In this document: positions 2 to 52,757 of the stretch, piece by piece
Layout: every line of letters begins with the position of its first letter
How positions within the stretch are numbered: the first letter of the stretch is position 1
The notes under the pieces: model-generated
Told to the model about the DNA's origin: nothing
The model's database searches: none
The model's input: only the letters and a program-made list of their open reading frames with translations
Virus record (IMG/VR): IMGVR_UViG_3300030331_003482
Coordinates: 1 to 64,000 of that record
Source of the DNA: an uncultured virus (IMG/VR IMGVR_UViG_3300030331_003482)
Taxonomy: Duplodnaviria > Heunggongvirae > Uroviricota > Caudoviricetes
DNA length: 64,000 nt
Reading direction: 5' to 3' (one strand)
Made by a program: the position numbers and the translations under genes

Positions 2-676
2 AATGGAACTGATGTGGGTAAATTTAAAGTTGCTAGTGCAGGTGTAAACCACGCTGTTCAAATAGGTAGTATTAGTAATAACGAAGTGCAATTTCACACT
101 AACAATAGTGAAAAAATGCGTATTACGTCAGCAGGAAACGTAGGAATAAACATAACAAATCCAGGTCAAAAACTTACTGTTAGTAGCGATGGTAGCGGTA
201 CTTCAGATGTAGTTAGAATTAATCATGGTAATGGTAGTCACACTGGCTATGGGTTAAGTATTAGATCAGGAAATACAGGTAATGCACTGCATATTGACGG
301 GACATCTGGTAGTGGTTTTGCAACAATAACATCAGCTTATAATTCAAATCCTTCGCTTCAAATATCTGGTGATGTTGTTGCTTTTGCTTCTTCTGATAAA
401 AGATTTAAAGATAACTTAGAAGTTATTAAAAATCCTATAGATAAATTACAACATTTAAATGGATATACTTTTGAATGGAATAACAAGCAAGATGTTTACA
501 AAGGAAAAGATTATGGAGTTGTTGCTCAAGAAGTAGAAAAAGTAGCTCCTGAGTTAGTAAACACTAGGTTCGATGGTTATAAAGCCGTTAAATACGAAAA
601 ATTAGTACCCTTATTAATTGAGAGTATAAAAGAATTAAAGCTTGAAATAGAAGAACTTAAAAAACAAATAAAATAA
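2..676 (+). CDS. Tail fibre C-terminal part with peptidase S74 intramolecular chaperone (5'-truncated by window edge)
   Basis: Frame is open from the window start. It has the fibre repeat EKMRITSAGNVGI, then S74-type SDKRFKDN...LNGYTFEW...YGVVAQEVE...VKYEKLVPLLIESIKEL and a coiled coil. Confidence 0.85.
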   Translation, partial: NGTDVGKFKVASAGVNHAVQIGSISNNEVQFHTNNSEKMRITSAGNVGINITNPGQKLTVSSDGSGTSDVVRINHGNGSHTGYGLSIRSGNTGNALHIDGTSGSGFATITSAYNSNPSLQISGDVVAFASSDKRFKDNLEVIKNPIDKLQHLNGYTFEWNNKQDVYKGKDYGVVAQEVEKVAPELVNTRFDGYKAVKYEKLVPLLIESIKELKLEIEELKKQIK

Positions 677-1290
677 TGACCTTACCAGCATCAGGATCTT
701 TATCAATTGGCGCTATAAATGTAGAGATGGGTAGAACTAATACCACACAAAATACAAGTTTATCACAATTGTCTGATGGAACTCATGGAACTATAAATGT
801 AGCTAATTTAAATGAAAATAAACCAGATGCATCTCTACCTCATGTTATGAGCGAGTTTCATAAGTATGAACATGTTGTTACTGTAAACGCAGTACCTGGA
901 TCTTTTAGTCAATTTTCTAGTAGTTCTCACAGTAGCGCAGGAACTATTACTGTTACTCATGCAGAACACTCTACTTTTTATGTTTCTTCAAAACCTAGTT
1001 GGGTTACTATAACTTCAGGAAACTTTGGAAGTAGTTTAAAAGATACTGGAGATGGTAACGTAACATTTAACGTGTCTGCTAATAGCGGTAGCGCAAGAAG
1101 TGGAAACATAGTAATAACTTATGACGTAGGCACAACAGGTGGAGGTTTAGGTGATGCAAACACTACAACTACAAGATCTGTTTCTGTTAGTCAAGCTGGA
1201 ACTTCTAGTGGAGGTGGTGGTAACCAAGGCGGTGGACCAGGCGGTGGTGGAGGTATACCACCAGGTGGTGGTGGAGGAGAAGCACCATAA
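676..1290 (+). CDS. Putative tail-tip adhesin with BACON-like domain and Gly-rich tail
   Basis: N-terminus MTLPASGSLSIGAINVE resembles fibre-associated small proteins. PSWVTIT..G.G.VTFNVSAN.G.ARSG.I...VSVSQAG matches the BACON pattern. Confidence 0.6.
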   Translation: MTLPASGSLSIGAINVEMGRTNTTQNTSLSQLSDGTHGTINVANLNENKPDASLPHVMSEFHKYEHVVTVNAVPGSFSQFSSSSHSSAGTITVTHAEHSTFYVSSKPSWVTITSGNFGSSLKDTGDGNVTFNVSANSGSARSGNIVITYDVGTTGGGLGDANTTTTRSVSVSQAGTSSGGGGNQGGGPGGGGGIPPGGGGGEAP

Positions 1291-3085: not shown

Positions 3086-5289
3086 TGTACGAACAAAGCT
3101 TATATAAAATAATAGAACCTATAAGGGCTAATACAATTAAACGTCTCAATAAAAGTAAAAAATGGGAATATGGTTATAACAAAGAACATGATGTTGTTGT
3201 TATATCTAAAGATGGTACTATAGGTGAAATATATAATATACAAAATCTTAAAATAGCATTACCAAAACAACCTAAAAAAGTTCACAGGTTTAATAGTGAC
3301 AAATGGGAAGTAACTCAATATCCAAAAGCTCTTGAAAGAATCAAGACTATATTTGATTGGAGAGATTATCCTAATAGTTTTAAAGATAAGTATATTGATT
3401 ATATTGAAAATGAATTTAGAAGAAGAGAAAGAGGTTTCTGGTTTTATAACAAAAACACTCCTTGTTATATTACTGGTACTCATTACATGTACCTCCAATG
3501 GTCAAAAATTGACGTCGGACACCCTGATTTCAGAGAAGCAAATAGATTATTCTACATTTTTTGGGAGGCCTGCAAAGCGGACCAGAGAAGTTATGGAATG
3601 TGCTATCTCAAAAATAGACGCTCAGGCTTTTCTTTTATGGCATCGGGGGAAACAGTTAACAGTGCCACAATATCTTCCGATTCACGCTTTGGGATACTGT
3701 CCAAATCTGGTCCCGATGCGAAGAAAATGTTCACGGATAAAGTTGTCCCAATTTCAGTTAACTATCCATTCTTCTTCAAACCTATCCAAGACGGTATGGA
3801 TCGACCTAAGACAGAACTGGCGTACAGAGTACCAGCATCTAAACTTACCAGAAAAAACATTACCACCTCTTCCAGTGATAAACCAGAAGAGCTCACAGGG
3901 CTCGATACAACTATCGACTGGAAAAATACCGGTGATAATTCGTATGACGGAGAAAAACTCAAACTCCTCGTCCATGACGAATCAGGCAAGTGGGAAAGGC
4001 CAAACAACATCCTCAACAACTGGAGGGTCACAAAGACAACATTAAGGTTAGGTAGTAGAGTTATAGGTAAGTGTATGATGGGATCAACATCAAACGCTTT
4101 AGATAAAGGTGGTGACAATTTTAAGAAATTATATTATGACTCAGACGTCACAAAAAGAAATCGCAATGGACAGACTAGCTCGGGATTATATAGTTTGTTC
4201 ATACCTATGGAATGGAACTACGAAGGATTCATTGATGCTTATGGTATACCTGTATTCGATACGCCAGAGCAAGAAGTTGAAGGACCGTACGGTGATTTTA
4301 TAGACGTTGGTGTTATAGATCACTGGCAAAATGAAGCAGACGGTTTAAAAAACGATCAAGATGCTTTAAATGAATTTTATAGACAGTTTCCAAGAACTGA
4401 AGAACACGCTTTCAGAGATGAAACTAAAAATAGTATATTTAATTTAGCTAGAATATACGAGCAAATAGATTATAATGATTATAATAAAAAACCTATAAAA
4501 GGTAATTTTCAATGGAAAGATGGTGTTAAAGACACACAGGTTGTTTTCTCACCAGATTTAAGTAACGGAAGATTTAATATATCATGGGTACCACCATTAG
4601 ATTTACAAAATAAATATGTTGTAAAAAATGGTTTGAAATATCCTGGTAATGAACACATAGGTGCTCTTGGTTGTGATAGTTACGATATATCAGGAACTGT
4701 TGATAAAAAAGGATCAAAAGGTTCTTTACATGGTTTAACTAAGTTTAGCATGGAAGATGCTCCACCTAATAAATTTTTTTTAGAATATATAGCTAGACCA
4801 CAAACAGCAGAAATATTTTTTGAAGATGTATTAATGGCTTGCGTATTTTATGGTATGCCAATATTAGCAGAAAATAATAAACCAAGATTATTATACTATT
4901 TAAAACGTAGAGGATATAGAGGTTACTCTATGAACAGACCAGATAAAATATGGAATAAGTTATCTGTGACTGAAAAAGAAATAGGTGGTATACCTAACTC
5001 AAGTGAAGATATAAAACAAGCTCATGCTGCGGCTATTGAAAGTTATATCTCACAACACGTTGGTGAGTCTGACAAAATACCATTTAATAGCACTTTAAAT
5101 GATTGGTCTAAATTTGACATTAATAATAGAACAAAGTTTGATGCTACTATTAGTTCAGGTTTAGCTATTATGGCTTGTAACAGACATTTATATACACCAA
5201 AACAAGAGAGATCAACTACAACAATAAATTTTGGTTTCTCAAAATATAACAATAAAGGAACAGTATCAAAAATAATAAATAATGATTAA
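3085..5289 (+). CDS. terL: Terminase large subunit
   Basis: Walker A variant LKNRRSGFS, Walker B LLVHDESGK, coupling motif GSTSN, C-terminal nuclease acidic motifs (GCDSYD, LAENN, FDATIS); directly upstream of the portal. Confidence 0.9.
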   Translation: MYEQSLYKIIEPIRANTIKRLNKSKKWEYGYNKEHDVVVISKDGTIGEIYNIQNLKIALPKQPKKVHRFNSDKWEVTQYPKALERIKTIFDWRDYPNSFKDKYIDYIENEFRRRERGFWFYNKNTPCYITGTHYMYLQWSKIDVGHPDFREANRLFYIFWEACKADQRSYGMCYLKNRRSGFSFMASGETVNSATISSDSRFGILSKSGPDAKKMFTDKVVPISVNYPFFFKPIQDGMDRPKTELAYRVPASKLTRKNITTSSSDKPEELTGLDTTIDWKNTGDNSYDGEKLKLLVHDESGKWERPNNILNNWRVTKTTLRLGSRVIGKCMMGSTSNALDKGGDNFKKLYYDSDVTKRNRNGQTSSGLYSLFIPMEWNYEGFIDAYGIPVFDTPEQEVEGPYGDFIDVGVIDHWQNEADGLKNDQDALNEFYRQFPRTEEHAFRDETKNSIFNLARIYEQIDYNDYNKKPIKGNFQWKDGVKDTQVVFSPDLSNGRFNISWVPPLDLQNKYVVKNGLKYPGNEHIGALGCDSYDISGTVDKKGSKGSLHGLTKFSMEDAPPNKFFLEYIARPQTAEIFFEDVLMACVFYGMPILAENNKPRLLYYLKRRGYRGYSMNRPDKIWNKLSVTEKEIGGIPNSSEDIKQAHAAAIESYISQHVGESDKIPFNSTLNDWSKFDINNRTKFDATISSGLAIMACNRHLYTPKQERSTTTINFGFSKYNNKGTVSKIINND

Positions 5290-21022: not shown

Positions 21023-24000
21023 ATGAATAGATCGGAATATATGAATAGTCTTGTTGACCAAGGATTAAGTAAACAAGAAATACTCAATAAACTCGCGGAA
21101 TATGACGCGGGAAAGTCACAGGACCCTGCAACTGTAGAGGCGAATGTAGGGTCAAACAATACGGCCTCAAGCTCGGAGAGTGGTTCATCGGAATCACAAG
21201 AAAACAATAATCTAAGTGTTTTTGAAAACCAAAACAAAAATTACCTTCAAAGAAGAGAAGATTATATAAACGCTGAAGGTGAGTTTGATACACCTGAAAT
21301 GAAAGCTATACCACTAGCAACTAGAGCTAAAAATGTTGATAAATTTGTTACAGCTCCAGATGTATCTGAATATGAAAGAGGTGTATCTTTAGATCAAGAC
21401 GGCAAATCTAGAAAACAAAAAACAAGTTTTTATAATGAATTTGAAGATAAACTTAATAAACATTTAGATGCTAATTTTAATGTTACTAGAGATAAAGATG
21501 GTAACATAAACGACATAAGACATAAAACTGATACTGAAGAATATGATAGAGCTAGAGGCGAAGGTATGTTCGGTATAAAAGACATGCAAACTAGATATGT
21601 AGCTTCTAGTGATGAGGAAATTGGTAGGGCTATAAATGATGTAATTAAAAATGAGTTTATAGCTAAAGATCCTGTTTTAAAAAGAAAAACAGAAGAATAT
21701 AACAAAAAAATACAACCAAAAATAGAAGCTATACGAGAAGAGTTAATACAAAAATACCAAGGTAGATTAACTTCAGATGCTAAATTTAACGAAGATATTT
21801 ACGATCAAATGAACAAAGAGTTTGAAGATCGAAGAAGATTACTTGGTGAAGATTTGTATGATGATCCAGAGTTTCAAGCTAGAATTCAAAAATACGAAAA
21901 AATTAGAAACAATTATTTTGATTCTAGTATTAAAAAAATTAAAAGATTTAGAGATCCATCTCTAAGACTTTATGACAATATTCCTTATGTTGGTAACCTA
22001 TTAGAGGGTATGGATAGTGCTGTTGCTGGTATGATACAAGGAGGTAAAGGTGTTGTTTTAAATAAAGAAGAAAAAGATATAACAAGTGCTCAAAAGGAAC
22101 TAACTGAACTAAAAAATAAGTTAGCTAAAAACCCTGAACTTGGGGATCAAGAAAAAGAGTATATAACAGGCACAGTTGAACTTTTTGGTAAAGATGATAA
22201 AGGAGAACAAAGAACAAGAGTTAAAAAAGAAAAAGGAACTCTTAACGATCTTATAAAGAAAAAAGAAGATGAACTAGCTGAACACACAAAGAACTATTTA
22301 AGTGTTTTAGAAAGCTACGAAAAAGGAAAGGACAAACAAGCTTTGTATAGATCTTTTTCTATAACAGATGGTGATGTTGATTTAGGTGATGTTTTAGGTA
22401 CTATAGGTAACGTAGCTCCTTATATGGCTGTTGCTGTAACGCCATACGTTGGAGCTCCTTTAATAGCAGCTACTTCATACGGTAATTCAAGACAAGATAT
22501 ACTTGCTAATCAAATGTCTAAAAAGTTAGGTAAAGATGTTTCTGAATTAACAGCTCAAGATTATGTTGATTTTGCTAAAAATAATGAAGAAGAAATAAAT
22601 GAGTTTTATGTTGGAGCAGGCGCTGTTGCTATGGCTTATTTAGAAAGATTAGGTGCAACAAAAGTAGCTAGCAAAACAGCTAAAGTATTAGGTTTAGGTA
22701 AATCAGCTAATTCTCAAGTTTATGGTTCATTATTAAAAGGACATTTTGGTAAATTTGCTCAAGGTTTATCTGGTAGAGCTAAAGATGCTACACTTTCTTC
22801 AGTTTTTGAAGGTGGAACAGAGGTTTTACAAGAAACTATTGAAGGTGTTGGTAATTACCTTGGAGACGAGACTATAAACGACAAGAGTTTCAATAATGCT
22901 TTTTTAAACAATGAATATGTTAGAGCAGATGAGCTATTAGAAGCTGGAGCTGCTGGTGCTTTAATAGGTGGTATTTTTCCTGGTTTAGGTGGTATAGCTA
23001 AACAAACCACGGTTGAGTTAAGAACAGCTGCAAGGATGTTTTCTACTAAGTTTGACATGAAAAATAATTCAGCTAGAGCAGAGCAGTATTTTGATGGTTT
23101 AAAACAAGAGTTAGAAAGAAGAAAAGGATTATCACCAGGTAATCCACTACGTTTAACAGAAGCAGAGTATAAGCAAGAAATAGATTACATGCAAGATCTA
23201 TATGGTAAATCTATGAGAGTTAAAGGTAACTTAGATGCTAATGTTAAGCATGATATATTTAAGTTAATGTATGAGAGAGATAACGTTAAAAAAGAATTAG
23301 CTGATCCTAACGTGGATGAGTCTGCTCATAAAAAATTAAATTCTAGATTAGTAGAAATAAATGCTGAAATAGAAAACAAACAAGGTGTTGACTTTGTTAA
23401 ATCTGGCATCAAGCAACTAAAAGATTTAGGATTTACAGAAGATTTAGATATTGATGCTGGTAAAAGTCAAGCTGAACTAGAAAAAGAGTTTGAAGGTAAT
23501 GAAGATGCTGTAAAAACATCTTATGGTTGGTTTGATCCTAAAACAAACAAAATGTTTGTTAATTCAGAGCTAGCGAATATGGATGGTAACGTTACTACAG
23601 CTCAACATGAATTTTTACATCCAATAACAAAAGCATTAATACAGTCTGGTAAAATTAAAAAAGAAACAATATTAGACTTAGTTAATAAGTACGATACTAA
23701 TAATTATGTTCAAGGTAGAATAGATGGTGATAAGGAGACTTACACAGATGAATACATGGATAAAAATCTTGATGAGTATTTAGCTATGTTTGGTGAAGGC
23801 GTAGCCGCTAATGAAATAAATATAGAAAACGAATCAACATTTACCGGTGTTAAGAATTTTGTAAAACAAGTATTAGGCGTTGCTTTACCGAAAGCAAACA
23901 TTGATTTTAACACTGTTGATGGTCTAAAAAACTTTATGGTAGAGTACAGTAAGTCTGATAGGGAAGGTAAGCTTACTGAAAGTTTAGTTAGTAGTTTAAA

Positions 24001-27000
24001 AGGAGTTAAGCAAGTTGGTAGAGAAGGTGAAGCTGTTATGTCATCAAGGCTAGCAGATAAGTTAAGTGAATATGGTGGTAACAAGACAAGATTAGTAAAT
24101 GAAACATTAATGTCTACGCCTGACGGTAGGATGGTTGACATGCAATCAGTTCCTTTAACTGAAAGTGAGTTTGGTCAAGAGATCGGTGGCGTTGTTGAGA
24201 GTATAACTAAAAGATTATTTGATAAAATACCAAGTGATTTAACTAGAGTATTAAATGAAGATAGAGGAAAAGCTAGACAAGCTTATAAAGACGCTTTAGT
24301 ATCAAAAGCAGCTACTATATTACAAAATGAGTGGGATCCAAGTAAACAACGTGGACAAAGTTTAGATAGTTGGTTAACACAGTTATTAAATCAAAGAGCT
24401 AACTCTTTAGCAACTGAGCTAGGTGTTGAACAAACGTTTACACAAGAAGCAACTGGTCAAGAGGCTACAACTGAAATAGAAACAACTCAAGAAGCAGATA
24501 AAGAATTTATTAACATAAGAGAAGGTGTATTTAGAATAGAAACTGGTAGTCCTCAGTATGAAAAAATATTAAATAAAGTAAAAGATATTATTACTAGAAA
24601 AAACCTTGTAAAAAGAAGTGGTAAAAAAGTTGTACTTGATTTTAATAATAAAAATCTTAGAAAAGATTTAAATGAAATATTTCAAAAAGAAGTAAGAAAA
24701 ATATTAGTATCTGAAGGTCTAATACCTAAAAATGTAGATGATTATAAAGCTTGGTTAGGTAAGAACAAAGGTAGGATATGGTCTAAGTTATCACAAGACG
24801 TTATTAACAAAAGATTTCCAGATTTAGTTACAAAGGTTGTTGATAGACAAACAAGAAAACAATCTAAATTAGATATAAATACAAAAAACATAAATGCTGG
24901 TAACGCTTTGTTTATTAAGAACAACATTGATACCGATGCTTTTGTTGAATATTTTTCAGGTAGAGCAAGAAAAGAATCACTTGGTCAAGCTCTTGCTATA
25001 GAACTAGCAAATGATGCAACTGTACAAGTAATGGGTGATCCTGATGTTTTATTAAAAAGAGATCAAGAAGGATTAAATAAAGGTACAATGAAAAATGAAT
25101 CAGCTAAAGCTGCTATGGCTAAAGTTGTTCAAAGACCTACTGATTTAGTATTTAGTAAAAAAGCAGCTGAGCTATCAGTTGGTGACGGTCCACAAAAATC
25201 AGATTATGATAAAATTATAGATACTTTTAAATCAAAAGATTTTATAGATGATTTAGATAAGTACGCGTCTGATCCTTCTGGTAAAGTAAGATCTTCTATA
25301 AAAAGAATAATAAATGAGCATTTAAGAAAAGCTGGGTTAGAAACAGTTAGTATAGGTGATATATCTAAAATAGCTGATCAAATGATACCTGGCGCTATAA
25401 AGGTAGATGTACAAGGTAATTTAGACATTGAAAATGCTGGTCAAACTATTGCAAATTATTTACTATCAACACACGAAGGTTCAAGAGAAGTCATAAGCGT
25501 TAAAGCTGGAGTTGAGGGTGGTTTTGATAAATCTGATTTAAAAGTTATAAACAATGGTAGAAAAGCCGTTAAGTCTTCTACTGAAGCAATATTAGATGGT
25601 GAAATATACGATGGTGATAAAAAGGTAAAACTAAAAACAGACCCTAAAAATCTAAAACTTATAAACAGAGCTTATGTAAATCCAGGTGACATGGGTGGTT
25701 TTAAAAGTAAAAATGGAACTACACCTGCTGATATTAAAGTAAAAGAAACTGAAGTACAAAAGAAAGACGGTCAAAAAAGAACATCATTATTTTTAAATGA
25801 AAGCGACTTTTCTAATAACGTTTCAAGTTTACAAGATCAAAATTCTTTAACAAGTAAATTAGGTTCTAAAGATGCTTATATAAATGATAAAAATGTAGAC
25901 ATAAATCCTAATGACTACAAACAAATAAGAGACGATGGTATTAAAGCTAAAAAAATACTACAAGATTATATTGATGATTTAAGGCTATTAGTAAAGCACG
26001 GTTACATATCAAATAAACAAGCAAGAATATTGATAGAGTCACAGTTTCAAGACACTAATGGCTTAGGTAGACAAGCCGCAGTTTTATCTTATATACCTAC
26101 AAAAGGTATAGACGCAATAAGAAAGTTATTAAACATAGATGGTGATAACTTTGTTTTTGAGCATATGATACCTGCAAATAATATAGCCACATTAGCTTAC
26201 AATTATATTATAAACGGTGATGCTAAATCTAAAAAAGATTTTGACGCTGAATTTAAAAACTATAAATCAGCTATTATACCAAAAGCTATAGATAATGTTT
26301 TAAAGGATAAAGGTACTATGTCTATAATGGGTATAAAGCATAAGCTTGGTCAAGATCCATTAACCTCAAGGTATGAGAATATACTAGATAATATAGAAGT
26401 ACATGACCTTGAAAATGGAAATATTATAGGTGAAAATAAAGTTGTATTGTCAAAAAGCTACAAAAAAGATCAATTAATAGACAAAGCTATTGAGATGGCA
26501 AGAAGAACTGATGCGCCTAAAAAAGGAATAACAGTTATGGACTTTGATGATACTGTTGCTAAAACAAAAAGCAAAATTGGTGTAACAATGCCTGATGGTA
26601 AATTTAAAAAGATTAATGCTACTGAGTTTGCTAAAGCATCTAGCGAATTGTCAGAGCAAGGAGCTATATTTGATTTTTCAGAATTTAATGAAGTAAAAAG
26701 CGGTCAAAAAGGTCCTTTGTTTGATATTATTAAAAAACGTGTAGAAAAGTTTGGAAATAAAGATGTATTTATATTAACAGCTAGACCACAAGAATCAGCT
26801 GGTGCTATTAAGAAGTTTTTAGAAGATAATGGTGTTGATATACCTATAGAGAATATAACCGGGTTAGAAAATGGTAGCCCAGAAGCAAAAGCTGATTTTA
26901 TGATAGCTAAAGCAGCTGAAGGTTATAATGATTTTTATTTTGCTGATGATGCTATAAAAAATGTTAAAGCTGTTAAAGACGTATTAGATATAGTAGACGT

Positions 27001-29113
27001 TAAGTCAGACATACAACAAGCTAGAGAAGATATTGTGTTTAGTAAGCGTGGTAAAAAGAGTCAAAAGTTTAATGAAATACTAGAAGAAACAAAAGGAATA
27101 AGAGCTGAAACTGAATATTCAGACGCCGCAGGTAAAGCAAGGGGTGCAAGAAAAGGTAAATTTAGTTTCTTTATACCTCCATCGGCTGAAGATCTTATGG
27201 GTTTAATGTATAGATTCATGGGTAAAGGTAAACAAGGCGAAGCACACAAAAAGTTTTTTGAAGATATGATAGCTAAACCTTTAGCTAGAGGTATAGACAG
27301 TATAAATAGAGCTAAACAAGCTTTAAGAAATGACTATGAAGCTATTAAAAAAGAATATAAAGATGTTCATAATAAACTTAAAATAGATAGTGGCTATAAT
27401 AACTTTACAAACGATGTGGCTGTAAGGGTTTACTTATGGACTAAAGCTGGTATGAAAATACCTGGTTTATCTAAAACAGATATTAAAAACCTTACTGATA
27501 TAGTAAAAAATGATCCTAGGATGTTAGAGTTTGCCAATAAAGTTTCGGCTGCTACTAAATTAAAAGAAGGATACATTGAACCACAAGATGACTGGTTAGC
27601 TAGCAGCATAGGTTTAGATATATTAAACATAAACCAAACAATAAGAAGAGGTGAGTATTTAAAAGAGTTTAATGACAATGTGGCTGAAATATTTAGCCCT
27701 GAAAATAAAAATAAAATTAGAGCTTTATATGGTGATAATTTTGTTGAAGCATTAGAAGATGTCATATATAGAGTTCAAAATGGTACTAATAGAAATTTTG
27801 GCAAAAATAGATTAGTAAATAATTTTATGACATGGATAAACTCTGCTACTGGTACTATAATGTTTTTTAATACGAGATCAGCGGTGTTGCAGACAATATC
27901 TTTTGCTAACTTTGTTAACTTTACAGATAATAATATATTAGCAGCTGGTAGAGCTTTTGCTAACCAAGGTCAGTTTTGGAAAGATTTTGGAACATTATTT
28001 GATTCAGACTTTTTAAAACAAAGACGTGGTGGTATGAGTCAAGATGTTAACTGGCAAGAAATAACAGACGCAATAAAAGGATCTAAAAGTCCAGTTACAA
28101 GAGCTATATCATTATTACTACAAAAAGGATTTTTACCTACACAAATAGCAGATAGTTTTGCTATAGCTTTAGGTGGTGCTAGTTTCTTTAGAAACAGAAT
28201 AGGTAAATATGAAAAAGAAGGTATGTCTCCTGGTGATGCTGAAAAACAAGCATTTTTAGATTTTCAAGAGGTAGCTGAAAAAACACAGCAGTCTGGTAGA
28301 CCTGATTTAATATCACAGCAGCAAGCAAGTCCACTTGGTAGAGTTTTATTAGCTTTTCAAAACGTTACTATGCAGTACAATAGGTTAGCTAAAAAAGACG
28401 TACTAGACTTAGTTAATGGAAGAAGGGAGCCTGGCGTTGATTCTTACACAAAAAGCGCTGCTATAAAAGTTGGTAGAGTTGCTTATTATATGGGTATGCA
28501 AAACCTAATATTTAATGCTATGCAACAAGCTTTATTTGCTATGATATTTGATGATGAAACTGACGAGGAAGAAAAAGAAAGATATAATGGTATAGCCAAT
28601 GGTATGGCTGATTCAATACTACGTGGTATGGGTATAGCTGGTGGTATTGTTGCTACACTAAAAAACATGGCTATAAGATTTGCTAGAGAAGATGCTAAAC
28701 CTGGAGGTAGAGGTGACTATGCTTACGTGTTAATAGAAGGTATTAATGTTTCTCCACCGGTTGGTAGTAAAGCAAGAAAGGTTTATAGCGCATTAAAAAC
28801 ATACGAGTTTAACAAAGAAGAAATGAAAAGAAAAGGTTTATCATTAGATAACCCAGCTTATGAAGCAGCCGCTAATGTTATATCAGCTGGTACTAATGTA
28901 CCTACAGACCGTTTATATTATAAAATAGAAAGCATTGGCACTATGTTAGATAACGAAACTCAAGCTTGGCAAAGAATAGCGTTAGCCTTAGGTTGGAGAG
29001 ACTGGCAGCTTGGTTTAACAGATGCTAAGCCTAAACCTCCTATGGTATATGATAGAAAAAGACAAAGTAGAGATTCGGGTGCAAGAAAAACTATTTCAAG
29101 AAAATCTAATTAA
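21023..29113 (+). CDS. Giant multidomain internal virion protein (zincin-like, sigma-region-2-like, HAD phosphatase domains)
   Basis: 2696 aa. AQHEFLH at ~23600; VVESITKRL...WDPSKQRGQSLDSWL at ~24190-24400; MDFDDT...LTARP...FADD at ~26540-26950. Confidence 0.8.
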   Translation: MNRSEYMNSLVDQGLSKQEILNKLAEYDAGKSQDPATVEANVGSNNTASSSESGSSESQENNNLSVFENQNKNYLQRREDYINAEGEFDTPEMKAIPLATRAKNVDKFVTAPDVSEYERGVSLDQDGKSRKQKTSFYNEFEDKLNKHLDANFNVTRDKDGNINDIRHKTDTEEYDRARGEGMFGIKDMQTRYVASSDEEIGRAINDVIKNEFIAKDPVLKRKTEEYNKKIQPKIEAIREELIQKYQGRLTSDAKFNEDIYDQMNKEFEDRRRLLGEDLYDDPEFQARIQKYEKIRNNYFDSSIKKIKRFRDPSLRLYDNIPYVGNLLEGMDSAVAGMIQGGKGVVLNKEEKDITSAQKELTELKNKLAKNPELGDQEKEYITGTVELFGKDDKGEQRTRVKKEKGTLNDLIKKKEDELAEHTKNYLSVLESYEKGKDKQALYRSFSITDGDVDLGDVLGTIGNVAPYMAVAVTPYVGAPLIAATSYGNSRQDILANQMSKKLGKDVSELTAQDYVDFAKNNEEEINEFYVGAGAVAMAYLERLGATKVASKTAKVLGLGKSANSQVYGSLLKGHFGKFAQGLSGRAKDATLSSVFEGGTEVLQETIEGVGNYLGDETINDKSFNNAFLNNEYVRADELLEAGAAGALIGGIFPGLGGIAKQTTVELRTAARMFSTKFDMKNNSARAEQYFDGLKQELERRKGLSPGNPLRLTEAEYKQEIDYMQDLYGKSMRVKGNLDANVKHDIFKLMYERDNVKKELADPNVDESAHKKLNSRLVEINAEIENKQGVDFVKSGIKQLKDLGFTEDLDIDAGKSQAELEKEFEGNEDAVKTSYGWFDPKTNKMFVNSELANMDGNVTTAQHEFLHPITKALIQSGKIKKETILDLVNKYDTNNYVQGRIDGDKETYTDEYMDKNLDEYLAMFGEGVAANEINIENESTFTGVKNFVKQVLGVALPKANIDFNTVDGLKNFMVEYSKSDREGKLTESLVSSLKGVKQVGREGEAVMSSRLADKLSEYGGNKTRLVNETLMSTPDGRMVDMQSVPLTESEFGQEIGGVVESITKRLFDKIPSDLTRVLNEDRGKARQAYKDALVSKAATILQNEWDPSKQRGQSLDSWLTQLLNQRANSLATELGVEQTFTQEATGQEATTEIETTQEADKEFINIREGVFRIETGSPQYEKILNKVKDIITRKNLVKRSGKKVVLDFNNKNLRKDLNEIFQKEVRKILVSEGLIPKNVDDYKAWLGKNKGRIWSKLSQDVINKRFPDLVTKVVDRQTRKQSKLDINTKNINAGNALFIKNNIDTDAFVEYFSGRARKESLGQALAIELANDATVQVMGDPDVLLKRDQEGLNKGTMKNESAKAAMAKVVQRPTDLVFSKKAAELSVGDGPQKSDYDKIIDTFKSKDFIDDLDKYASDPSGKVRSSIKRIINEHLRKAGLETVSIGDISKIADQMIPGAIKVDVQGNLDIENAGQTIANYLLSTHEGSREVISVKAGVEGGFDKSDLKVINNGRKAVKSSTEAILDGEIYDGDKKVKLKTDPKNLKLINRAYVNPGDMGGFKSKNGTTPADIKVKETEVQKKDGQKRTSLFLNESDFSNNVSSLQDQNSLTSKLGSKDAYINDKNVDINPNDYKQIRDDGIKAKKILQDYIDDLRLLVKHGYISNKQARILIESQFQDTNGLGRQAAVLSYIPTKGIDAIRKLLNIDGDNFVFEHMIPANNIATLAYNYIINGDAKSKKDFDAEFKNYKSAIIPKAIDNVLKDKGTMSIMGIKHKLGQDPLTSRYENILDNIEVHDLENGNIIGENKVVLSKSYKKDQLIDKAIEMARRTDAPKKGITVMDFDDTVAKTKSKIGVTMPDGKFKKINATEFAKASSELSEQGAIFDFSEFNEVKSGQKGPLFDIIKKRVEKFGNKDVFILTARPQESAGAIKKFLEDNGVDIPIENITGLENGSPEAKADFMIAKAAEGYNDFYFADDAIKNVKAVKDVLDIVDVKSDIQQAREDIVFSKRGKKSQKFNEILEETKGIRAETEYSDAAGKARGARKGKFSFFIPPSAEDLMGLMYRFMGKGKQGEAHKKFFEDMIAKPLARGIDSINRAKQALRNDYEAIKKEYKDVHNKLKIDSGYNNFTNDVAVRVYLWTKAGMKIPGLSKTDIKNLTDIVKNDPRMLEFANKVSAATKLKEGYIEPQDDWLASSIGLDILNINQTIRRGEYLKEFNDNVAEIFSPENKNKIRALYGDNFVEALEDVIYRVQNGTNRNFGKNRLVNNFMTWINSATGTIMFFNTRSAVLQTISFANFVNFTDNNILAAGRAFANQGQFWKDFGTLFDSDFLKQRRGGMSQDVNWQEITDAIKGSKSPVTRAISLLLQKGFLPTQIADSFAIALGGASFFRNRIGKYEKEGMSPGDAEKQAFLDFQEVAEKTQQSGRPDLISQQQASPLGRVLLAFQNVTMQYNRLAKKDVLDLVNGRREPGVDSYTKSAAIKVGRVAYYMGMQNLIFNAMQQALFAMIFDDETDEEEKERYNGIANGMADSILRGMGIAGGIVATLKNMAIRFAREDAKPGGRGDYAYVLIEGINVSPPVGSKARKVYSALKTYEFNKEEMKRKGLSLDNPAYEAAANVISAGTNVPTDRLYYKIESIGTMLDNETQAWQRIALALGWRDWQLGLTDAKPKPPMVYDRKRQSRDSGARKTISRKSN

Positions 29114-45517: not shown

Positions 45518-45809
45518 CTAAGTTATCTAATTTATTTTGTATTATTTCTAATCTTCGTTTTATTATCGCCGCTTTCATATATTCTTCTTTACCTTCATAT
45601 ATTGCAAGCAGCGTGTGTAGTCTAGCCATTTCAGCAACTAAAAATTCTTCTTCAGTTTCTTTGAAAGGCATATAACCTTTCATTATGTCAGCAATAGTCA
45701 TTGGCGTAGACATTTGATGTTCTTCTTGTTTAAACTTCCACAGCATCTTTTTAATTACCGCATCCGTTATCATATCAATTGTTGCATCGTTTATATTATC
45801 TAAATCCAT
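45480..45809 (-). CDS. Hypothetical protein with UvrB/C-like C-terminal helix pair
   Basis: EEYMKAAIIKRRL motif. Confidence 0.55.
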   Translation of the reverse strand: MDLDNINDATIDMITDAVIKKMLWKFKQEEHQMSTPMTIADIMKGYMPFKETEEEFLVAEMARLHTLLAIYEGKEEYMKAAIIKRRLEIIQNKLDNLDDTTQGNAGPQI

Positions 45810-45826
45810 TCGTATTTAGTTTGTTT
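45794..45826 (-). promoter_or_regulatory. Early motif copy (AAACA-N5-AATACGA-N9-GATAATA)
   Basis: Matches the six-copy consensus; upstream box partly degenerate. Confidence 0.6.
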
Positions 45827-47752: not shown

Positions 47753-47785
47753 TATTATCCTATTGTCATCGTATTTTGTTTGTAA
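47753..47785 (-). promoter_or_regulatory. Early motif copy
   Basis: TTACA-AACAA-AATACGA-TGACAATAG-GATAATA. Confidence 0.75.
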
Positions 47786-47787
47786 TA

Positions 47788-47916
47788 AGTGGCGGCCAAC
47801 CTGTGAGCAATGTCTTAAGCTTCTCACGATGGACCGAGTTACGTATTGTTCACTTTGGGCTCACTTCTGAACGAAGTTACCTCGCCACCCCAATACTGCG
47901 GTGCTTCCATCAGCCT
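47788..47916 (-). ncRNA. GC-rich structured RNA of unknown class, probably pseudoknotted
   Basis: Complementary pairs GATGG/CCATC, ACCG/CGGT, GTATTG/CAATAC, ACTTC/GAAGT and GTGAG/CTCAC, plus non-nested GTGGCG/CGCCAC and GTTCA/TGAAC. Confidence 0.55.
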
Positions 47917-47920
47917 GTAG

Positions 47921-47994
47921 TGGACGTGGCAGGAGTCGAACCTGCGTCTGGCACCTTTGCTTACGCCGAGGTTGCCGCCAACCATTACACGCCC
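47921..47994 (-). ncRNA. Ala-identity tRNA-like / tmRNA tRNA-like-domain RNA without a canonical anticodon arm
   Basis: Acceptor GGGCGTG/CACGTCC with G3:U70 and A73; T-arm GCAGG-TTCGACT-CCTGC preceded by GAC; no encoded CCA. Confidence 0.75.
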
Positions 47995-48215
47995 TATATC
48001 TCGTCGTAATAAGGATTAGTTATTACTCCAAGTTGCAATGCTAGCTGCCTAGCAACAAGTTGCATGAGATAACTATGAGTGTCGTTGAATTGTTTGCCCT
48101 CAAGATCTTCATACTCCTTGCTGTCTAGTGCCCAGCTGCATTGTCTTTTAATATCTTTTTTAACTAAGCTTGCTATTGCTTTTGCTTCTATATCTAAGTT
48201 TTTAATTCTTCCCAT
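47994..48215 (-). CDS. Hypothetical early protein
   Basis: 73-aa ORF ending at the tRNA-like RNA. Confidence 0.6.
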   Translation of the reverse strand: MGRIKNLDIEAKAIASLVKKDIKRQCSWALDSKEYEDLEGKQFNDTHSYLMQLVARQLALQLGVITNPYYDEI

Positions 48216-48530: not shown

Positions 48531-48563
48531 TATTATCTTGCTTTAATCGTATTTTGTTTGTAA
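48531..48563 (-). promoter_or_regulatory. Early motif copy
   Basis: TTACA-AACAA-AATACGA-TTAAAGCAA-GATAATA. Confidence 0.75.
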
Positions 48564-49412: not shown

Positions 49413-49445
49413 TATTATCTTACTATGTTCGTATTTAGACTGTAA
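49413..49445 (-). promoter_or_regulatory. Early motif copy
   Basis: TTACA-GTCTA-AATACGA-ACATAGTAA-GATAATA. Confidence 0.75.
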
Positions 49446-49934: not shown

Positions 49935-49967
49935 TATTATCTTTTGAGTTTCGTATTTAGTTTGTAA
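49935..49967 (-). promoter_or_regulatory. Early motif copy
   Basis: TTACA-AACTA-AATACGA-AACTCAAAA-GATAATA. Confidence 0.75.
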
Positions 49968-50063: not shown

Positions 50064-50096
50064 TATTATCTTTATATAGTCGTATTTATTATGTAA
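50064..50096 (-). promoter_or_regulatory. Early motif copy
   Basis: TTACA-TAATA-AATACGA-CTATATAAA-GATAATA. Confidence 0.75.
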
Positions 50097-50938: not shown

Positions 50939-52513
50939 ATGGAATATAATCAACCAAGCCAGATCGTCAAGAATCTTGACTATGGCTTAAATGCTAAACG
51001 CAAAATAATAGATGGTGTAGACAAACTGAATAATGCAGTTAAATCTACACTGGGAGCCTCAGGAAAATGTGTCATCTATGAAGACGCATTAGGCAAGCCG
51101 GTGATTACAAAAGACGGTGTAACGGTAGCTCAATCCGTTGTCTTATATGATCCGGTTGAAAATATCGGAGCCACACTTATTAAAGAGGCTGCGAATAATA
51201 CAGTGAAAGAAGCAGGTGATGGTACCACTACGGCTACTGTCCTTGCTCACTCACTATTAACAATTGCAGAAGAATATGAAAAAGAAAATCAAAGAGAAGT
51301 TAAAGAAGGTATTAGATCTGGTACAGAAAAAGTTATCTCTCATTTGGAGAAACAAAGTATTAAGGTTACTGATGATCTATTACAACAAGTTGCTACGATA
51401 TCTACTAACAACGATGAAGAGTTGGGTGGAATTATTGCAGAAGCATATAAGCAAGTAGGAAAAGATGGTATAGTCTTAATGGAAGGATCGCCAACGGGTG
51501 AAACATATGTTGATGTTGTTGATGGTATACAAATGAAGTGTCCACTTAAATCACCTTATTTAATTACAGATAAAGATAAAGGCACGTGTGTATTAGAAAA
51601 TCCTGCAATACTTATATCTTCATCACCTATACCTAATATAAGAAAGATACAGAATATATTAGAACATTGTATAAAAGGTAATAAACCTTTATTAATAGTA
51701 GGTGATATTGAACAGCAACCAAAAGCTGCATTACTTACAAATAAAGTAAAAGGTAACATAAAAGTTAACTTTATTGATTTACCTGGTTTTGGTCCTACAA
51801 AAGAAGATACTATAGAAGATTTAGCTATAGTAACAGGTGCTAAAATTATAAATGAAGAACTTGGTGACGATTTTGAGCTAATAGATCCTAGTTGCTTAGG
51901 TGAAGCTGTTAAAGCAGTAACTGATGATAAGCATACAGTGTTAACTGTAAATAAATCAGGTAAAGAGTTAAAAGATCGTGTAAAACAAGTAAAAGATATA
52001 ATTAAGAAGGAAACTAAAAATCCCTTCTTAAAAAAGAAACAACAAGAGAGATTAGCAATACTTAACGGATCCGTTGGTATCGTATTTGTAGGTGCTGATA
52101 GCGAAGTTGAGTTAAAAGAAAAGAAAGATAGAGTTGAAGATGCTATTTATGCTACGAAAGCAGCATTACAAGAAGGCATCGTACCAGGTGGTGGTATAGC
52201 GTTATTAAATGCCGCCAAGTCTATCAAACCAAAAAATGTTGGTGAAGAGATATTATTACAGGCGATAACAATGCCTTTTCAAACCATATTAGATAATGCT
52301 AATATTGATGTGCCTGAAACTAAACTCAAAACAGGTTACGGGGTTAATGTCATAAACGGTGAAATAGTTGATATGGTTAAGTCTGGTGTTATTGATCCGG
52401 TTTTGGTTACAAAATCGGCGCTTAAAAATGCTGCATCAGTAGCAAGCACTATAATATCTGCAGACTGTATAATAAGTAACGTTAGAATATTAAAACAAGA
52501 TGAAAGCAGTTAA
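50939..52513 (+). CDS. groEL: Phage-encoded chaperonin GroEL
   Basis: ITKDGVTVA, AGDGTTTATVL, EKKDRVEDA..AT.AA..EGIVPGGG, GVIDP..VT..AL.NAASVA. Confidence 0.95.
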   Translation: MEYNQPSQIVKNLDYGLNAKRKIIDGVDKLNNAVKSTLGASGKCVIYEDALGKPVITKDGVTVAQSVVLYDPVENIGATLIKEAANNTVKEAGDGTTTATVLAHSLLTIAEEYEKENQREVKEGIRSGTEKVISHLEKQSIKVTDDLLQQVATISTNNDEELGGIIAEAYKQVGKDGIVLMEGSPTGETYVDVVDGIQMKCPLKSPYLITDKDKGTCVLENPAILISSSPIPNIRKIQNILEHCIKGNKPLLIVGDIEQQPKAALLTNKVKGNIKVNFIDLPGFGPTKEDTIEDLAIVTGAKIINEELGDDFELIDPSCLGEAVKAVTDDKHTVLTVNKSGKELKDRVKQVKDIIKKETKNPFLKKKQQERLAILNGSVGIVFVGADSEVELKEKKDRVEDAIYATKAALQEGIVPGGGIALLNAAKSIKPKNVGEEILLQAITMPFQTILDNANIDVPETKLKTGYGVNVINGEIVDMVKSGVIDPVLVTKSALKNAASVASTIISADCIISNVRILKQDESS

Positions 52514-52757
52514 TTATTATATAGTTATTGATAAAATTAAAGAAAAACCTAAATCAGAGTCTGGCTTTGTATTATCTGAAGCACAAAGCGAAGATGTAAG
52601 GTTTTCTAAAGGTAATGTAATTAGCGTGGGTGAAGCAGTTAACGGTATTAACGAAGGTGATATTGTGTGGTATGACAAACACGCTGGTAACGGAATTGAG
52701 TATGATAACAAATATTATTATGTTATCAAACATGGGGATGTTGTTATAATAGAATGA
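52500..52757 (+). CDS. groES: Co-chaperonin GroES
   Basis: SESGFVL mobile loop, GNVISVG, GDIVWY; overlaps groEL. Confidence 0.85.
   Translation: MKAVNYYIVIDKIKEKPKSESGFVLSEAQSEDVRFSKGNVISVGEAVNGINEGDIVWYDKHAGNGIEYDNKYYYVIKHGDVVIIE

Follow-up and report, generated by a model that had tools for sequence, protein, structure and literature searches.

What kind of RNA is encoded where the marks of an alanine tRNA enclose a segment in which no anticodon arm can be drawn? The question is raised by a 74-nucleotide (nt) element on the minus strand, at positions 47921..47994, of a 64,000-nt stretch of DNA (hereafter the window, in whose coordinates positions without a locus label are given), which is nearly all of a 65,226-base virus record of IMG/VR (IMGVR_UViG_3300030331_003482), rated as complete by CheckV and with about 32% G+C. 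An earlier note, made from the letters of the window, had described the element as a stand-alone, alanine-marked RNA resembling the tRNA-like domain (TLD) of transfer-messenger RNA (tmRNA), with no message part. We find that it is a real RNA gene, homologous to the TLD of tmRNA and without a message part, and that its fold is conserved in a family of related phages.

The letters given for 47921-47994 in the note match the window sequence exactly, and the 7-bp acceptor stem can be read straight off it: G1-C72, G2-C71, G3:U70, C4-G69, G5-C68, U6-A67 and G7-C66, with A73 as the discriminator. The 5′ strand of this stem, GGGCGUG (G1 to G7), occupies 47988..47994 and is paired at all seven positions with the 3′ strand, CACGUCC, which together with A73 occupies 47921..47928; the T arm, GCAGG-UUCGACU-CCUGC (47929..47945), is likewise present as it had been written. 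The 42 nt that separate the acceptor strands and the T arm hold neither a D stem nor a 7-nt anticodon loop. They begin with an unpaired D-loop analogue, UAAUGGUUGGC (47977..47987), which has no D stem and aligns with the tmRNA consensus AucuGGaUU.C, continue with a single capped, P2-like hairpin, GGC-A-ACCU-CG-GC-GUAA-GC-AA-AGGU-GCC (47950..47976), the 20-nt tip of which is a module shared with other elements (see below), and end with the linker AGAC (47946..47949), placed by the cmscan alignment at the GGAC of the tmRNA consensus. A73 is followed by the trailer CUA (47918..47920), so that CCA is not encoded. The element has a minimum free energy of -31.9 kcal/mol (z = -2.31), and three of 200 shuffled sequences fold equally well.

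Over the whole window, ARAGORN makes no tRNA call and no tmRNA call, and an Rfam scan of the window returns no family at or above its gathering score, in agreement with the statement in the note that the element has no canonical anticodon arm and no tag open reading frame (ORF). Below the gathering score, which is 47 for the tmRNA family RF00023, this family matches the element at 31.7 bits (E 4.2e-11) in a permissive local search of 501 bases and at 40.2 bits (E 3.1e-16) in a search of the whole record. The alignment is end to end, over model positions 1-374, with 304 interior positions replaced by 10 nt, and in the local permissive scan the tmRNA model scores above the other two tRNA-clan families with a match at this site. 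The match exceeds what chance would give. With these 304 positions, the pseudoknots PK1-PK4 and the long P2 helix are missing from the element. The mRNA-like domain, with its resume codon and its tag frame, is absent as well; the interior consists of a hairpin of 27 nt, and across the 62 elements of the family described below no frame is conserved. The canonical features of a tRNA-Ala, a D stem and an anticodon arm, are also lacking in the fold that is supported by covariation.

Relatives of the window were brought in by the ligase gene, which lies 2.4 kb downstream of the element (minus strand); they comprise 80 viral-contig loci at a protein identity of 60-81%, and many of these belong to genomes of 60-70 kb (L-numbers in the following are the labels of the loci compared). 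Eighteen short members of the family were aligned (alignment A1), and the RNAalifold consensus was made into a covariance model, R1, which scores the window element at 72.3 bits. At E ≤ 0.01, R1 has 67 matches in 63 of the 80 loci; the matches all share the strand of the ligase gene, and most lie 2-2.5 kb upstream of it. Some of the 17 loci without a match end too early upstream (e.g., L057 and L059). At E ≤ 1e-6, a search given the window and 59 loci has 62 matches in the window and those loci, that is, in 59 of the 80 relatives. Moreover, a pattern for the 3′ half of the family is found in at least 120 viral contigs. Among deposited phages, megablast with 4 kb around the element and blastn with the 241-nt RNA region gave only a 29-nt chance match in a Microbacterium phage, a tblastn search with the ligase gave only distant relatives (less than 36% identity), and Flavobacterium phage elemoE (NC_055854.1) has no R1 match.

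In a covariation alignment of the 62 sequences (56 distinct rows), which was fitted to R1, standard pairs are found in 97.7% of the cells, as against at most 51% when the partners are slid by one to three columns; compensatory changes, on both sides of a pair, occur at 10 of the 15 pairs, and the covariation score is 0.448, compared with at most 0.054 in the slid controls. The G3:U70 wobble is kept in 53 of the 56 distinct rows, the remaining three having A3:U70, and A73 is found in 55, the GG of the D-loop analogue in 55 and the T loop UUCGANU in all 56. Pair 4:69 covaries (CG in 37 rows, AU in 14, GC in two and UA in one), as do three of the five pairs of the T stem. The linker before the T arm is mostly NAAC in the family (TAAC in 26, AAAC in 15 and AGAC in three of the 56). 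Together with the end-to-end model alignment, the parallel with mycobacteriophage DS6A and the ends resembling those of Bacteroidota tmRNAs (see below for both), this covariation bears out the description of the element as a stand-alone, alanine-marked RNA like the TLD of tmRNA. Nor are its homologues ordinary cloverleaf tRNAs, of which this copy would be a decayed example: in the 51 relative loci that ARAGORN was given, it calls not one of the elements.

For the middle of the element two folds had been proposed in the note, only one of which is upheld. The P2-like helix, GGC-A-ACCU/AGGU-GCC capped by GC-GNRA-GC, holds in seven of the seven elements that carry the same module, with a compensatory change of GGC/GCC to GAC/GUC (G-C to A-U) and a change of the loop from GUAA to GAAA; the alternative hairpin, GGUUG/CAACC, is complete only in the window and in its near-twin L064, and keeps three of its five pairs in the other five elements with this module. 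Across the family, the middle is hypervariable and is assembled from modules exchanged between elements. Its length ranges from 0 to 113 nt, with a median of 46 nt in the 61 elements that have one, and it folds into one hairpin in 50 of the 61 and into two in the other 11. The minimal member, of 47 nt (L110:3676-3722; 42.7 bits with R1), consists of the acceptor stem, the D-loop analogue and the T arm, with no P2 hairpin. There are 53 distinct middles among the 62 elements, and 27 clusters of unrelated middles; one cluster, of 21 elements, spans the acceptor frames GGGCGUG, GGGAGUG, GGGCGCG and GGAAGUG. A total of 11 distinct copies of the 20-nt tip module of the window are present in 1.155 Mb of viral loci, and 10 of them have a T loop 10-34 nt downstream. 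Over these occurrences it differs at just two positions, unpaired positions included, and it is confined to elements of this build, among them one with a non-alanine acceptor (L104; see below). In a local permissive scan, no Rfam family matches the tip module.

Several other accounts of the site were considered and set aside. A mini tag frame of five codons within the P2 helix, GCG-GCA-ACC-UCG-GCG-UAA, loses its stop in the variants with a GAAA loop, and no frame is conserved. A two-piece (permuted) tmRNA is ruled out: the Rfam family tmRNA_permuted reaches only 18 bits (E 0.13), with a similarly weak match of 22 bits for DS6A, the GGGGUGG found downstream is unable to form pairs with the 3′ strand of the acceptor, and a 5′ strand belongs to the element itself. 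A second copy is not present in the window, as R1 gives a single match there at E ≤ 0.01. Finally, the element does not qualify as the remnant of an attachment site; its 5′ strand is complete and there is no integrase among the scanned ORFs.

The surroundings of the element bear on how the RNA would be made. In the order of the minus strand, a promoter-like motif (48531..48563, by pattern match) is followed by two ORFs of 73 amino acids each, the element, about 130 nt of non-coding sequence and the next such motif (47753..47785, minus strand, an exact pattern match), which ends the RNA region. The motif is bipartite, TTACAAAC-N-AAATACGA-N8-GGATAATA, and has six minus-strand copies between 45.8 and 50.1 kb (45794-45826, 47753-47785, 48531-48563, 49413-49445, 49935-49967 and 50064-50096), with none expected; several copies are found in every related locus. 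It does not occur within 120 nt upstream of any of the 62 elements, and is closely downstream of 11. Because the motif is never near upstream, and the ORFs of the unit precede the element, the RNA must be cut from a longer transcript. The second of the two ORFs (47994..48215, minus strand; no PHROG or Pfam match), which would be co-transcribed with the element, has its TAG stop at 47994-47996, overlapping G1 by one base. The same overlap is found in L058 and L124, that is, in three of the 62 in all, and hence is no feature of the family; an ORF of at least 40 codons ends between -30 and +12 of G1 in 21 of the 62. In about two-thirds of the relatives no ORF ends at the element, and recurrent sequences precede G1, such as GUGCCUCGAAAA, UGCCUCUCAUAA, CUGCUGCCUUAU and CUCACCUUUUUA (12 nt were inspected), which could represent the 3′ side of an upstream hairpin that is conserved, or another small RNA. 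On the other side, the trailer after A73 is CTA in 56 of the 62 members and CAA in six, and a CUA-type trailer also follows neighboring true tRNAs of the relatives and the RNA of DS6A.

Fourteen marine DNA runs contain at least half of the sampled words of the stretch, and five RNA runs contain part of it. In four metatranscriptome runs from two studies, most of a 2-kb stretch is uncovered and two contigs are informative; as these are contigs and not reads, so that depth cannot rank genes, only their end positions were used. One contig, 110 nt long and with one mismatch, traverses the element, carries a different sequence upstream of it and terminates one base past 47920; the other, of 197 nt and identical to 47995-48191, stops one base before G1. 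These ends give a weak hint of cleavage at both borders of the element.

What, then, might the RNA do? The note had listed three options: an SmpB/EF-Tu decoy that alters trans-translation, a tag-less ribosome-rescue RNA and a decoy for tRNA-targeting defenses. For the first there is a published precedent, the last is without support, and the generic scaffold taken up below as the main rival was not on that list. In tmRNA, the TLD is charged with alanine, bound by SmpB and brought by EF-Tu to ribosomes stalled at the ends of mRNAs. Charging is carried out by the ordinary alanyl-tRNA synthetase (AlaRS), the binding of EF-Tu is about equal to that of tRNAs, and SmpB, which is required, fills the room left by the absent anticodon arm (as set out in the relevant passages of PMC8012679). 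A TLD-only molecule like that of DS6A is reported by the tmRNA-database group to inhibit the endogenous tmRNA in Escherichia coli, "perhaps acting by titrating SmpB" (in the words used of it in PMC4131195 and PMC11915505). Since it has neither a resume codon nor a tag frame, the element cannot direct tagging. On the basis of the established biology of the TLD (charging by AlaRS, SmpB, delivery by EF-Tu), we tentatively favor, at somewhat short of an even chance, the reading that the element is an alanine-charged competitor of the host tmRNA for SmpB and for stalled ribosomes, which suppresses tagging. The RNA, which closes an early or middle transcription unit at its 3′ end, would be excised from the longer transcript by a cut at G1, of the kind made by RNase P, and by another just past A73, and CCA would then be added. 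It would be alanylated by the AlaRS of the host and bound by SmpB; any SmpB partner must be that of the host, because none was found in the phage, with 66 ORFs compared with Pfam and 48 ORFs with PHROGs. The charged phage RNA would compete with the host tmRNA for SmpB and stalled ribosomes, and the net effect would be a suppression of SsrA tagging and of host trans-translation during infection. Processing in the manner of a tRNA is supported by the position of the element in or beside clusters of tRNA-Met and tRNA-Gln genes in relatives, with the same C-U/A-A trailer.

A number of our own observations weigh against competition with the host tmRNA. Nearly the whole acceptor stem is conserved in this close family, only pair 4:69 being free, which makes the constancy of G3:U70 weaker evidence than it would seem, and the three distinct members with A3:U70 (including those of L089 and L115) retain the rest of the fold. 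In tmRNA, P2 is preceded on the 5′ side by GAC; the window has GGC there, just 15 of the 56 members have GAC, and the 3′ linker, as described above, is mostly NAAC and not the GGAC of tmRNA. The sequence of the P2-tip module is conserved at unpaired positions, which a mere spacer would not need. Relatives carry RNAs of the same build, without an anticodon and with non-alanine acceptors, which fits a more general role for a tRNA-like frame. The element is also common but accessory: five complete genomes (97-100%) lack a match near the ligase gene, and in four of these there is none anywhere, the fifth having a 22.9-bit match. Finally, the contigs from RNA libraries may stem from contaminating DNA.

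The main rival to the reading as a competitor is that the element is a generic tRNA-like scaffold, in which the frame serves only for excision by RNase P, 3′ trimming, CCA addition and stability, while the exchangeable hairpin is the working part, for example a protein binding site. Engineered "tRNA scaffolds" exist, and the phage RNA would be their natural counterpart. We regard this as unlikely but as having real support: the hypervariable middle contains modules that recur on different acceptor frames, the near-invariant tip module, unpaired positions included, is found on a non-alanine frame as well, and at least three different anticodon-less, tRNA-like frames are present in the clade. 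A generic frame, however, would not require G:U at 3:70 (53/56), A73 (55/56) or a D-loop analogue of the tmRNA type; moreover, the 27 clusters of unrelated middles and the hairpin-less element of L110 argue for a tip that can often vary freely or be dispensed with, and the tip module has, as noted, no counterpart among Rfam families in the local permissive scan. The stronger proposal, that the tRNA-like frames of the clade are natural, interchangeable display scaffolds excised and CCA-capped by tRNA-processing enzymes of the host, with the recombining hairpin modules as functional cargo, the GNRA-capped module of the window perhaps binding a host or phage factor, appears to us rather unlikely. 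That the fold is processing punctuation, similar to a t-element, which only marks the cuts by RNase P and 3′ trimming and thereby delimits the upstream mRNA at its 3′ end and what lies downstream at its 5′ end, is decidedly improbable. The element does always stand at the end of a unit, with the motif upstream in none and closely downstream in 11 of the 62 cases and with an ORF ending near G1 in 21, a conserved, structured piece lies downstream of it in the window, L120, L125 and L126 (see below), and the contigs from RNA libraries end at both borders. But a cutting signal needs no G3:U70, A73 or tmRNA-type D-loop analogue, the adjoining true tRNAs could already serve as punctuation in most relatives, and the downstream piece, with only four distinct occurrences among the viral loci compared, cannot explain the family.

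The same structural evidence that speaks for a competitor also fits a tag-less ribosome rescue, in which the charged RNA, with host SmpB, would enter ribosomes stalled on cleaved or non-stop (phage) mRNAs and take over the nascent chain; the release or hydrolysis of the peptidyl-RNA would then free the ribosomes and spare phage proteins the degradation tag. In the window, the stop codon of the upstream ORF would lose its last base by a cut at G1, which would produce a non-stop mRNA, but this overlap is found in just three of the 62 members. After transfer of the chain to a message-less TLD there would be no codon in the A site, and to our knowledge no route of release from such a state has been described. 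The mitochondrial tmRNA, which is apparently without a tag frame and yet is conserved together with SmpB, speaks for rescue, as do the two plastid forms taken up below (as described in the tmRNA database paper, PMC11915505); the sole experimental datum cited in the passages concerned of PMC4131195 and PMC11915505 is inhibition, not rescue, and we consider rescue by the element improbable. Phage tRNA-like genes have sometimes been read as decoys for host defenses that cleave or sense tRNAs, and the element is accessory, as counter-defense genes often are. The usual target of anticodon nucleases is the anticodon stem-loop, which the element does not have, and Pfam and PHROG scans show no link in its neighborhood to a defense or counter-defense gene; a decoy of this kind is very improbable. 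Least of all do we expect a decayed tRNA or tmRNA without function. The absence of the element from some complete relatives is what decay would predict, but such a remnant can hardly be reconciled with 97.7% pairing and compensation at 10 of 15 pairs over 56 distinct sequences, with a conserved position upstream of the ligase gene or with the occurrence of the 3′ half of the family in at least 120 viral contigs.

Apart from the element, the window encodes the terminase, portal and structural proteins, a ribonucleotide reductase, a thymidylate synthase, a primase-helicase, Erf, a sigma-like factor, an ATP-dependent ligase, GroEL/GroES and a holin; no integrase was found in the same Pfam (66 ORFs) and PHROG (48 ORFs) comparisons. 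The closest terminases are those of podoviruses of Flavobacterium, Cellulophaga, Tenacibaculum and Maribacter, and a small ORF (676-1290, plus strand) has a BACON domain, which fits a Bacteroidota host; because of the terminase relatives and of the BACON-domain ORF, the host is probably a marine member of the Flavobacteriia. GroEL and GroES (Cpn10) are both encoded by the phage, at 50939-52757 (plus strand), and an ORF of 2,696 amino acids that follows the structural genes (21023-29113, plus strand) has no match in Pfam or in PHROGs. The window has no tRNA gene, whereas in many relatives genes for tRNA-Met (and tRNA-Gln) come directly after the element.

The non-coding piece that follows the element in the window (47788..47917, minus strand) is GC-richer and, by sequence comparison, lies outside the tRNA-like fold. 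Its 3′ part, of 44 nt or so (a GUGAG-N15-CUCAC hairpin and AGGUUGGCCGCCAC), is common to L120, L125 and L126, in which the piece is about 80 nt long and begins directly after the element. A module of about 60 nt (47834-47894) is otherwise found only in the P2 arm of the second element of L124 (3364-3466). The piece is not itself a second copy, as it shares that module but has no T arm and no 3′ acceptor strand; it looks like a recombinant of a TLD-type element and another small RNA.

Other tRNA-like RNAs were seen in the relatives. Those of a second class, in seven loci (L089:3214-3302, L090:3258-3346, L104:4580-4655, L114:3988-4099, L116:3658-3754, L130:~3990-4083 and L136:~3318-3402), have the acceptor AACUAGG/UCUAGUU (C3:G70, A73), with AACUAGG..UCUAGUUA, a UAUGG segment, a variable hairpin, a short extra arm (UACY-GACG-RGUA), a T arm and the trailer CUA, but no anticodon; their best Rfam match is tRNA-Sec, at 19 bits (E 0.15). 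The class occurs together with the alanine-type element in L089, L090, L114 and L136, and alone near the ligase gene in L104, L116 and L130; the RNA of L104 is the one that bears the 20-nt tip module of the window element. A third anticodon-less, tRNA-like RNA lies in an unannotated gap (532-627) of MW202828.1 (L381), a deposited freshwater podovirus the terminase of which is 64% identical. Its acceptor is AGUGCAG/CUGCACU (U3:A70), with A73; a D-arm-like segment and a T arm are present, and a long hairpin stands where the anticodon arm would be. The only R1 match in this genome, at 23.6 bits, is this non-alanine RNA, and ARAGORN is silent there.

Beyond the clade, RNAs of 63-80 nt that resemble a TLD alone, with G3:U70, a segment of the UGGUUUCGAC type, one hairpin and a T arm, are found in unrelated viral contigs from many samples, some of them beside tRNA arrays (L003-L006, L013, L015, L016, L023, L029, L034, L040, L041, L046-L048, L053 and L055, at about 1501-1580; 33-55 bits with R1). 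The kind is widespread outside this clade. In L053, a starred ARAGORN call of a tmRNA (1169-1591) overlaps with four tRNA genes and has its end in the TLD-only-like element (1501-1578); it is probably a false call, seeded by that element. A loose pattern scan also returned a sizeable group of RNAs, about 70 nt long, from within the tRNA arrays of big phages, with a UAAUGGG 5′ segment and a UUGCAA or UUGCGA loop (L007, L010-L012, L014, L017-L020, L022, L024-L028, L030, L032, L033, L035-L038, L042-L045, L049, L050, L052 and L054, at about 1501-1571; 12-32 bits with R1). Among those tested, ARAGORN calls tRNA-Ala(UGC) in L018, L024 and L052 and misses others; the group may consist of alanine tRNAs with a reduced D arm.

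The element belongs to a known but barely described kind. As far as the tmRNA database paper of March 2025 goes in the passages concerned (PMC11915505), DS6A is the sole phage named in print with a tmRNA that lacks a coding sequence (CDS), and our search of the literature on phage TLD decoys found no further case. Particular to the present element are the large marine clade, the conserved synteny, the modular arm and the sister frames of a non-alanine type; the same kind of RNA is now seen as a conserved, covarying gene in a large and abundant clade of marine phages with Flavobacteria-like hosts. ARAGORN finds no element of the family, the window copy falls under the gathering score of Rfam and the DS6A copy is unannotated. 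If the RNA is indeed a decoy that competes with tmRNA, phages would be using interference with ribosome rescue and with protein tagging as a recurrent strategy, and it would be no mere curiosity. The family also provides a natural mutational series for the needs of AlaRS, SmpB and EF-Tu, with the changes at pair 4:69, the three losses of G3:U70 and the P2 arms of 0-113 nt, and its modular hairpins, together with the sister frames of a non-alanine type, raise a further possibility, that of scaffolds, which is the more novel of the two.

One of the closest known systems is the "TLD only" (CDS-less) tmRNA of mycobacteriophage DS6A, as it is presented in PMC4131195 and PMC11915505. We locate this RNA at 28478-28560 of JN698994.1 (L257:979-1061), in an unannotated GenBank gap between gp33 and gp34. 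It aligns with RF00023 end to end, at 34.7 bits, with 312 positions replaced by 20 nt, and is found by R1 at 35.6 bits, whereas true tRNAs score at most 25 bits in the same search, which covered 24 of the 55 pattern loci and DS6A. Both are stand-alone phage RNAs of about 75-83 nt with G3:U70, A73, a T arm, a D-loop analogue that has no stem and a single capped P2 hairpin. Each has CUA instead of CCA behind it, is missed by ARAGORN and is unannotated. They differ in that DS6A has an Actinomycetota host and the window phage a Bacteroidota-like one, and there is no sequence similarity beyond the common frame; moreover, the window element belongs to a large family, has a modular, hypervariable P2 arm and adjoins tRNA genes in relatives, whereas DS6A is a single published case. 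CDS-less tmRNAs are also described for mitochondria and for two Mallomonadaceae plastids (about 65 bp, apparently CDS-less), in the part of PMC11915505 that deals with them. Compared by description, these have in common with the element that little beyond a TLD is left and that there is no tag frame; they differ in being kept together with an organelle-targeted SmpB, presumably as the rescue RNA of the cell itself and not as a viral competitor (PMC11915505, in the same part). A tRNA-Ala resembles the element in G3:U70, A73, the T arm, the length of 74 nt and the processing context of a tRNA gene, but the element has no D stem, anticodon arm or anticodon and is not called by ARAGORN. AcrIIIA1, a phage protein that binds fragments of host tRNA and tmRNA (according to the passages concerned of PMC11662646), has no bearing on a TLD that is encoded by the phage.

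Another close known system is the TLD of Bacteroidota (Flavobacteriales) tmRNA. The variants in L082 and L136 start with GGGG-G-UGA-NN-UGGUUUUGAC, and a segment GGGG-N-UGA-NN-UGGUUUUGAC is found in at least 120 bacterial genomes, mostly of Bacteroidota, including Flavobacteriales; the five bacterial loci checked are all full tmRNAs (137-158 bits) in which CCA is not encoded. The TLD of these tmRNAs and the phage family share the G3:U70 acceptor, the UGGUU..GAC 5′ segment, a GAC or AAC before the T arm, the T arm itself and the lack of an encoded CCA, and the elements of L082 and L136 are identical to the 5′ 20 nt of the bacterial tmRNA save at covarying positions. One tmRNA of the Flavobacteriales ends in UCCA-CAA, and the phage elements end in UCCA-CUA or UCCA-CAA. 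The bacterial RNAs differ in their interior of about 350 nt, with the P2 extension, pseudoknots, resume codon and tag frame, in place of which the element has a 27-nt hairpin, and the window copy further departs from tmRNA in having GGC for GAC and a score below gathering. The family thus looks like a Bacteroidota TLD in which the interior has been exchanged for a short hairpin, with the window copy as one of its more diverged members.

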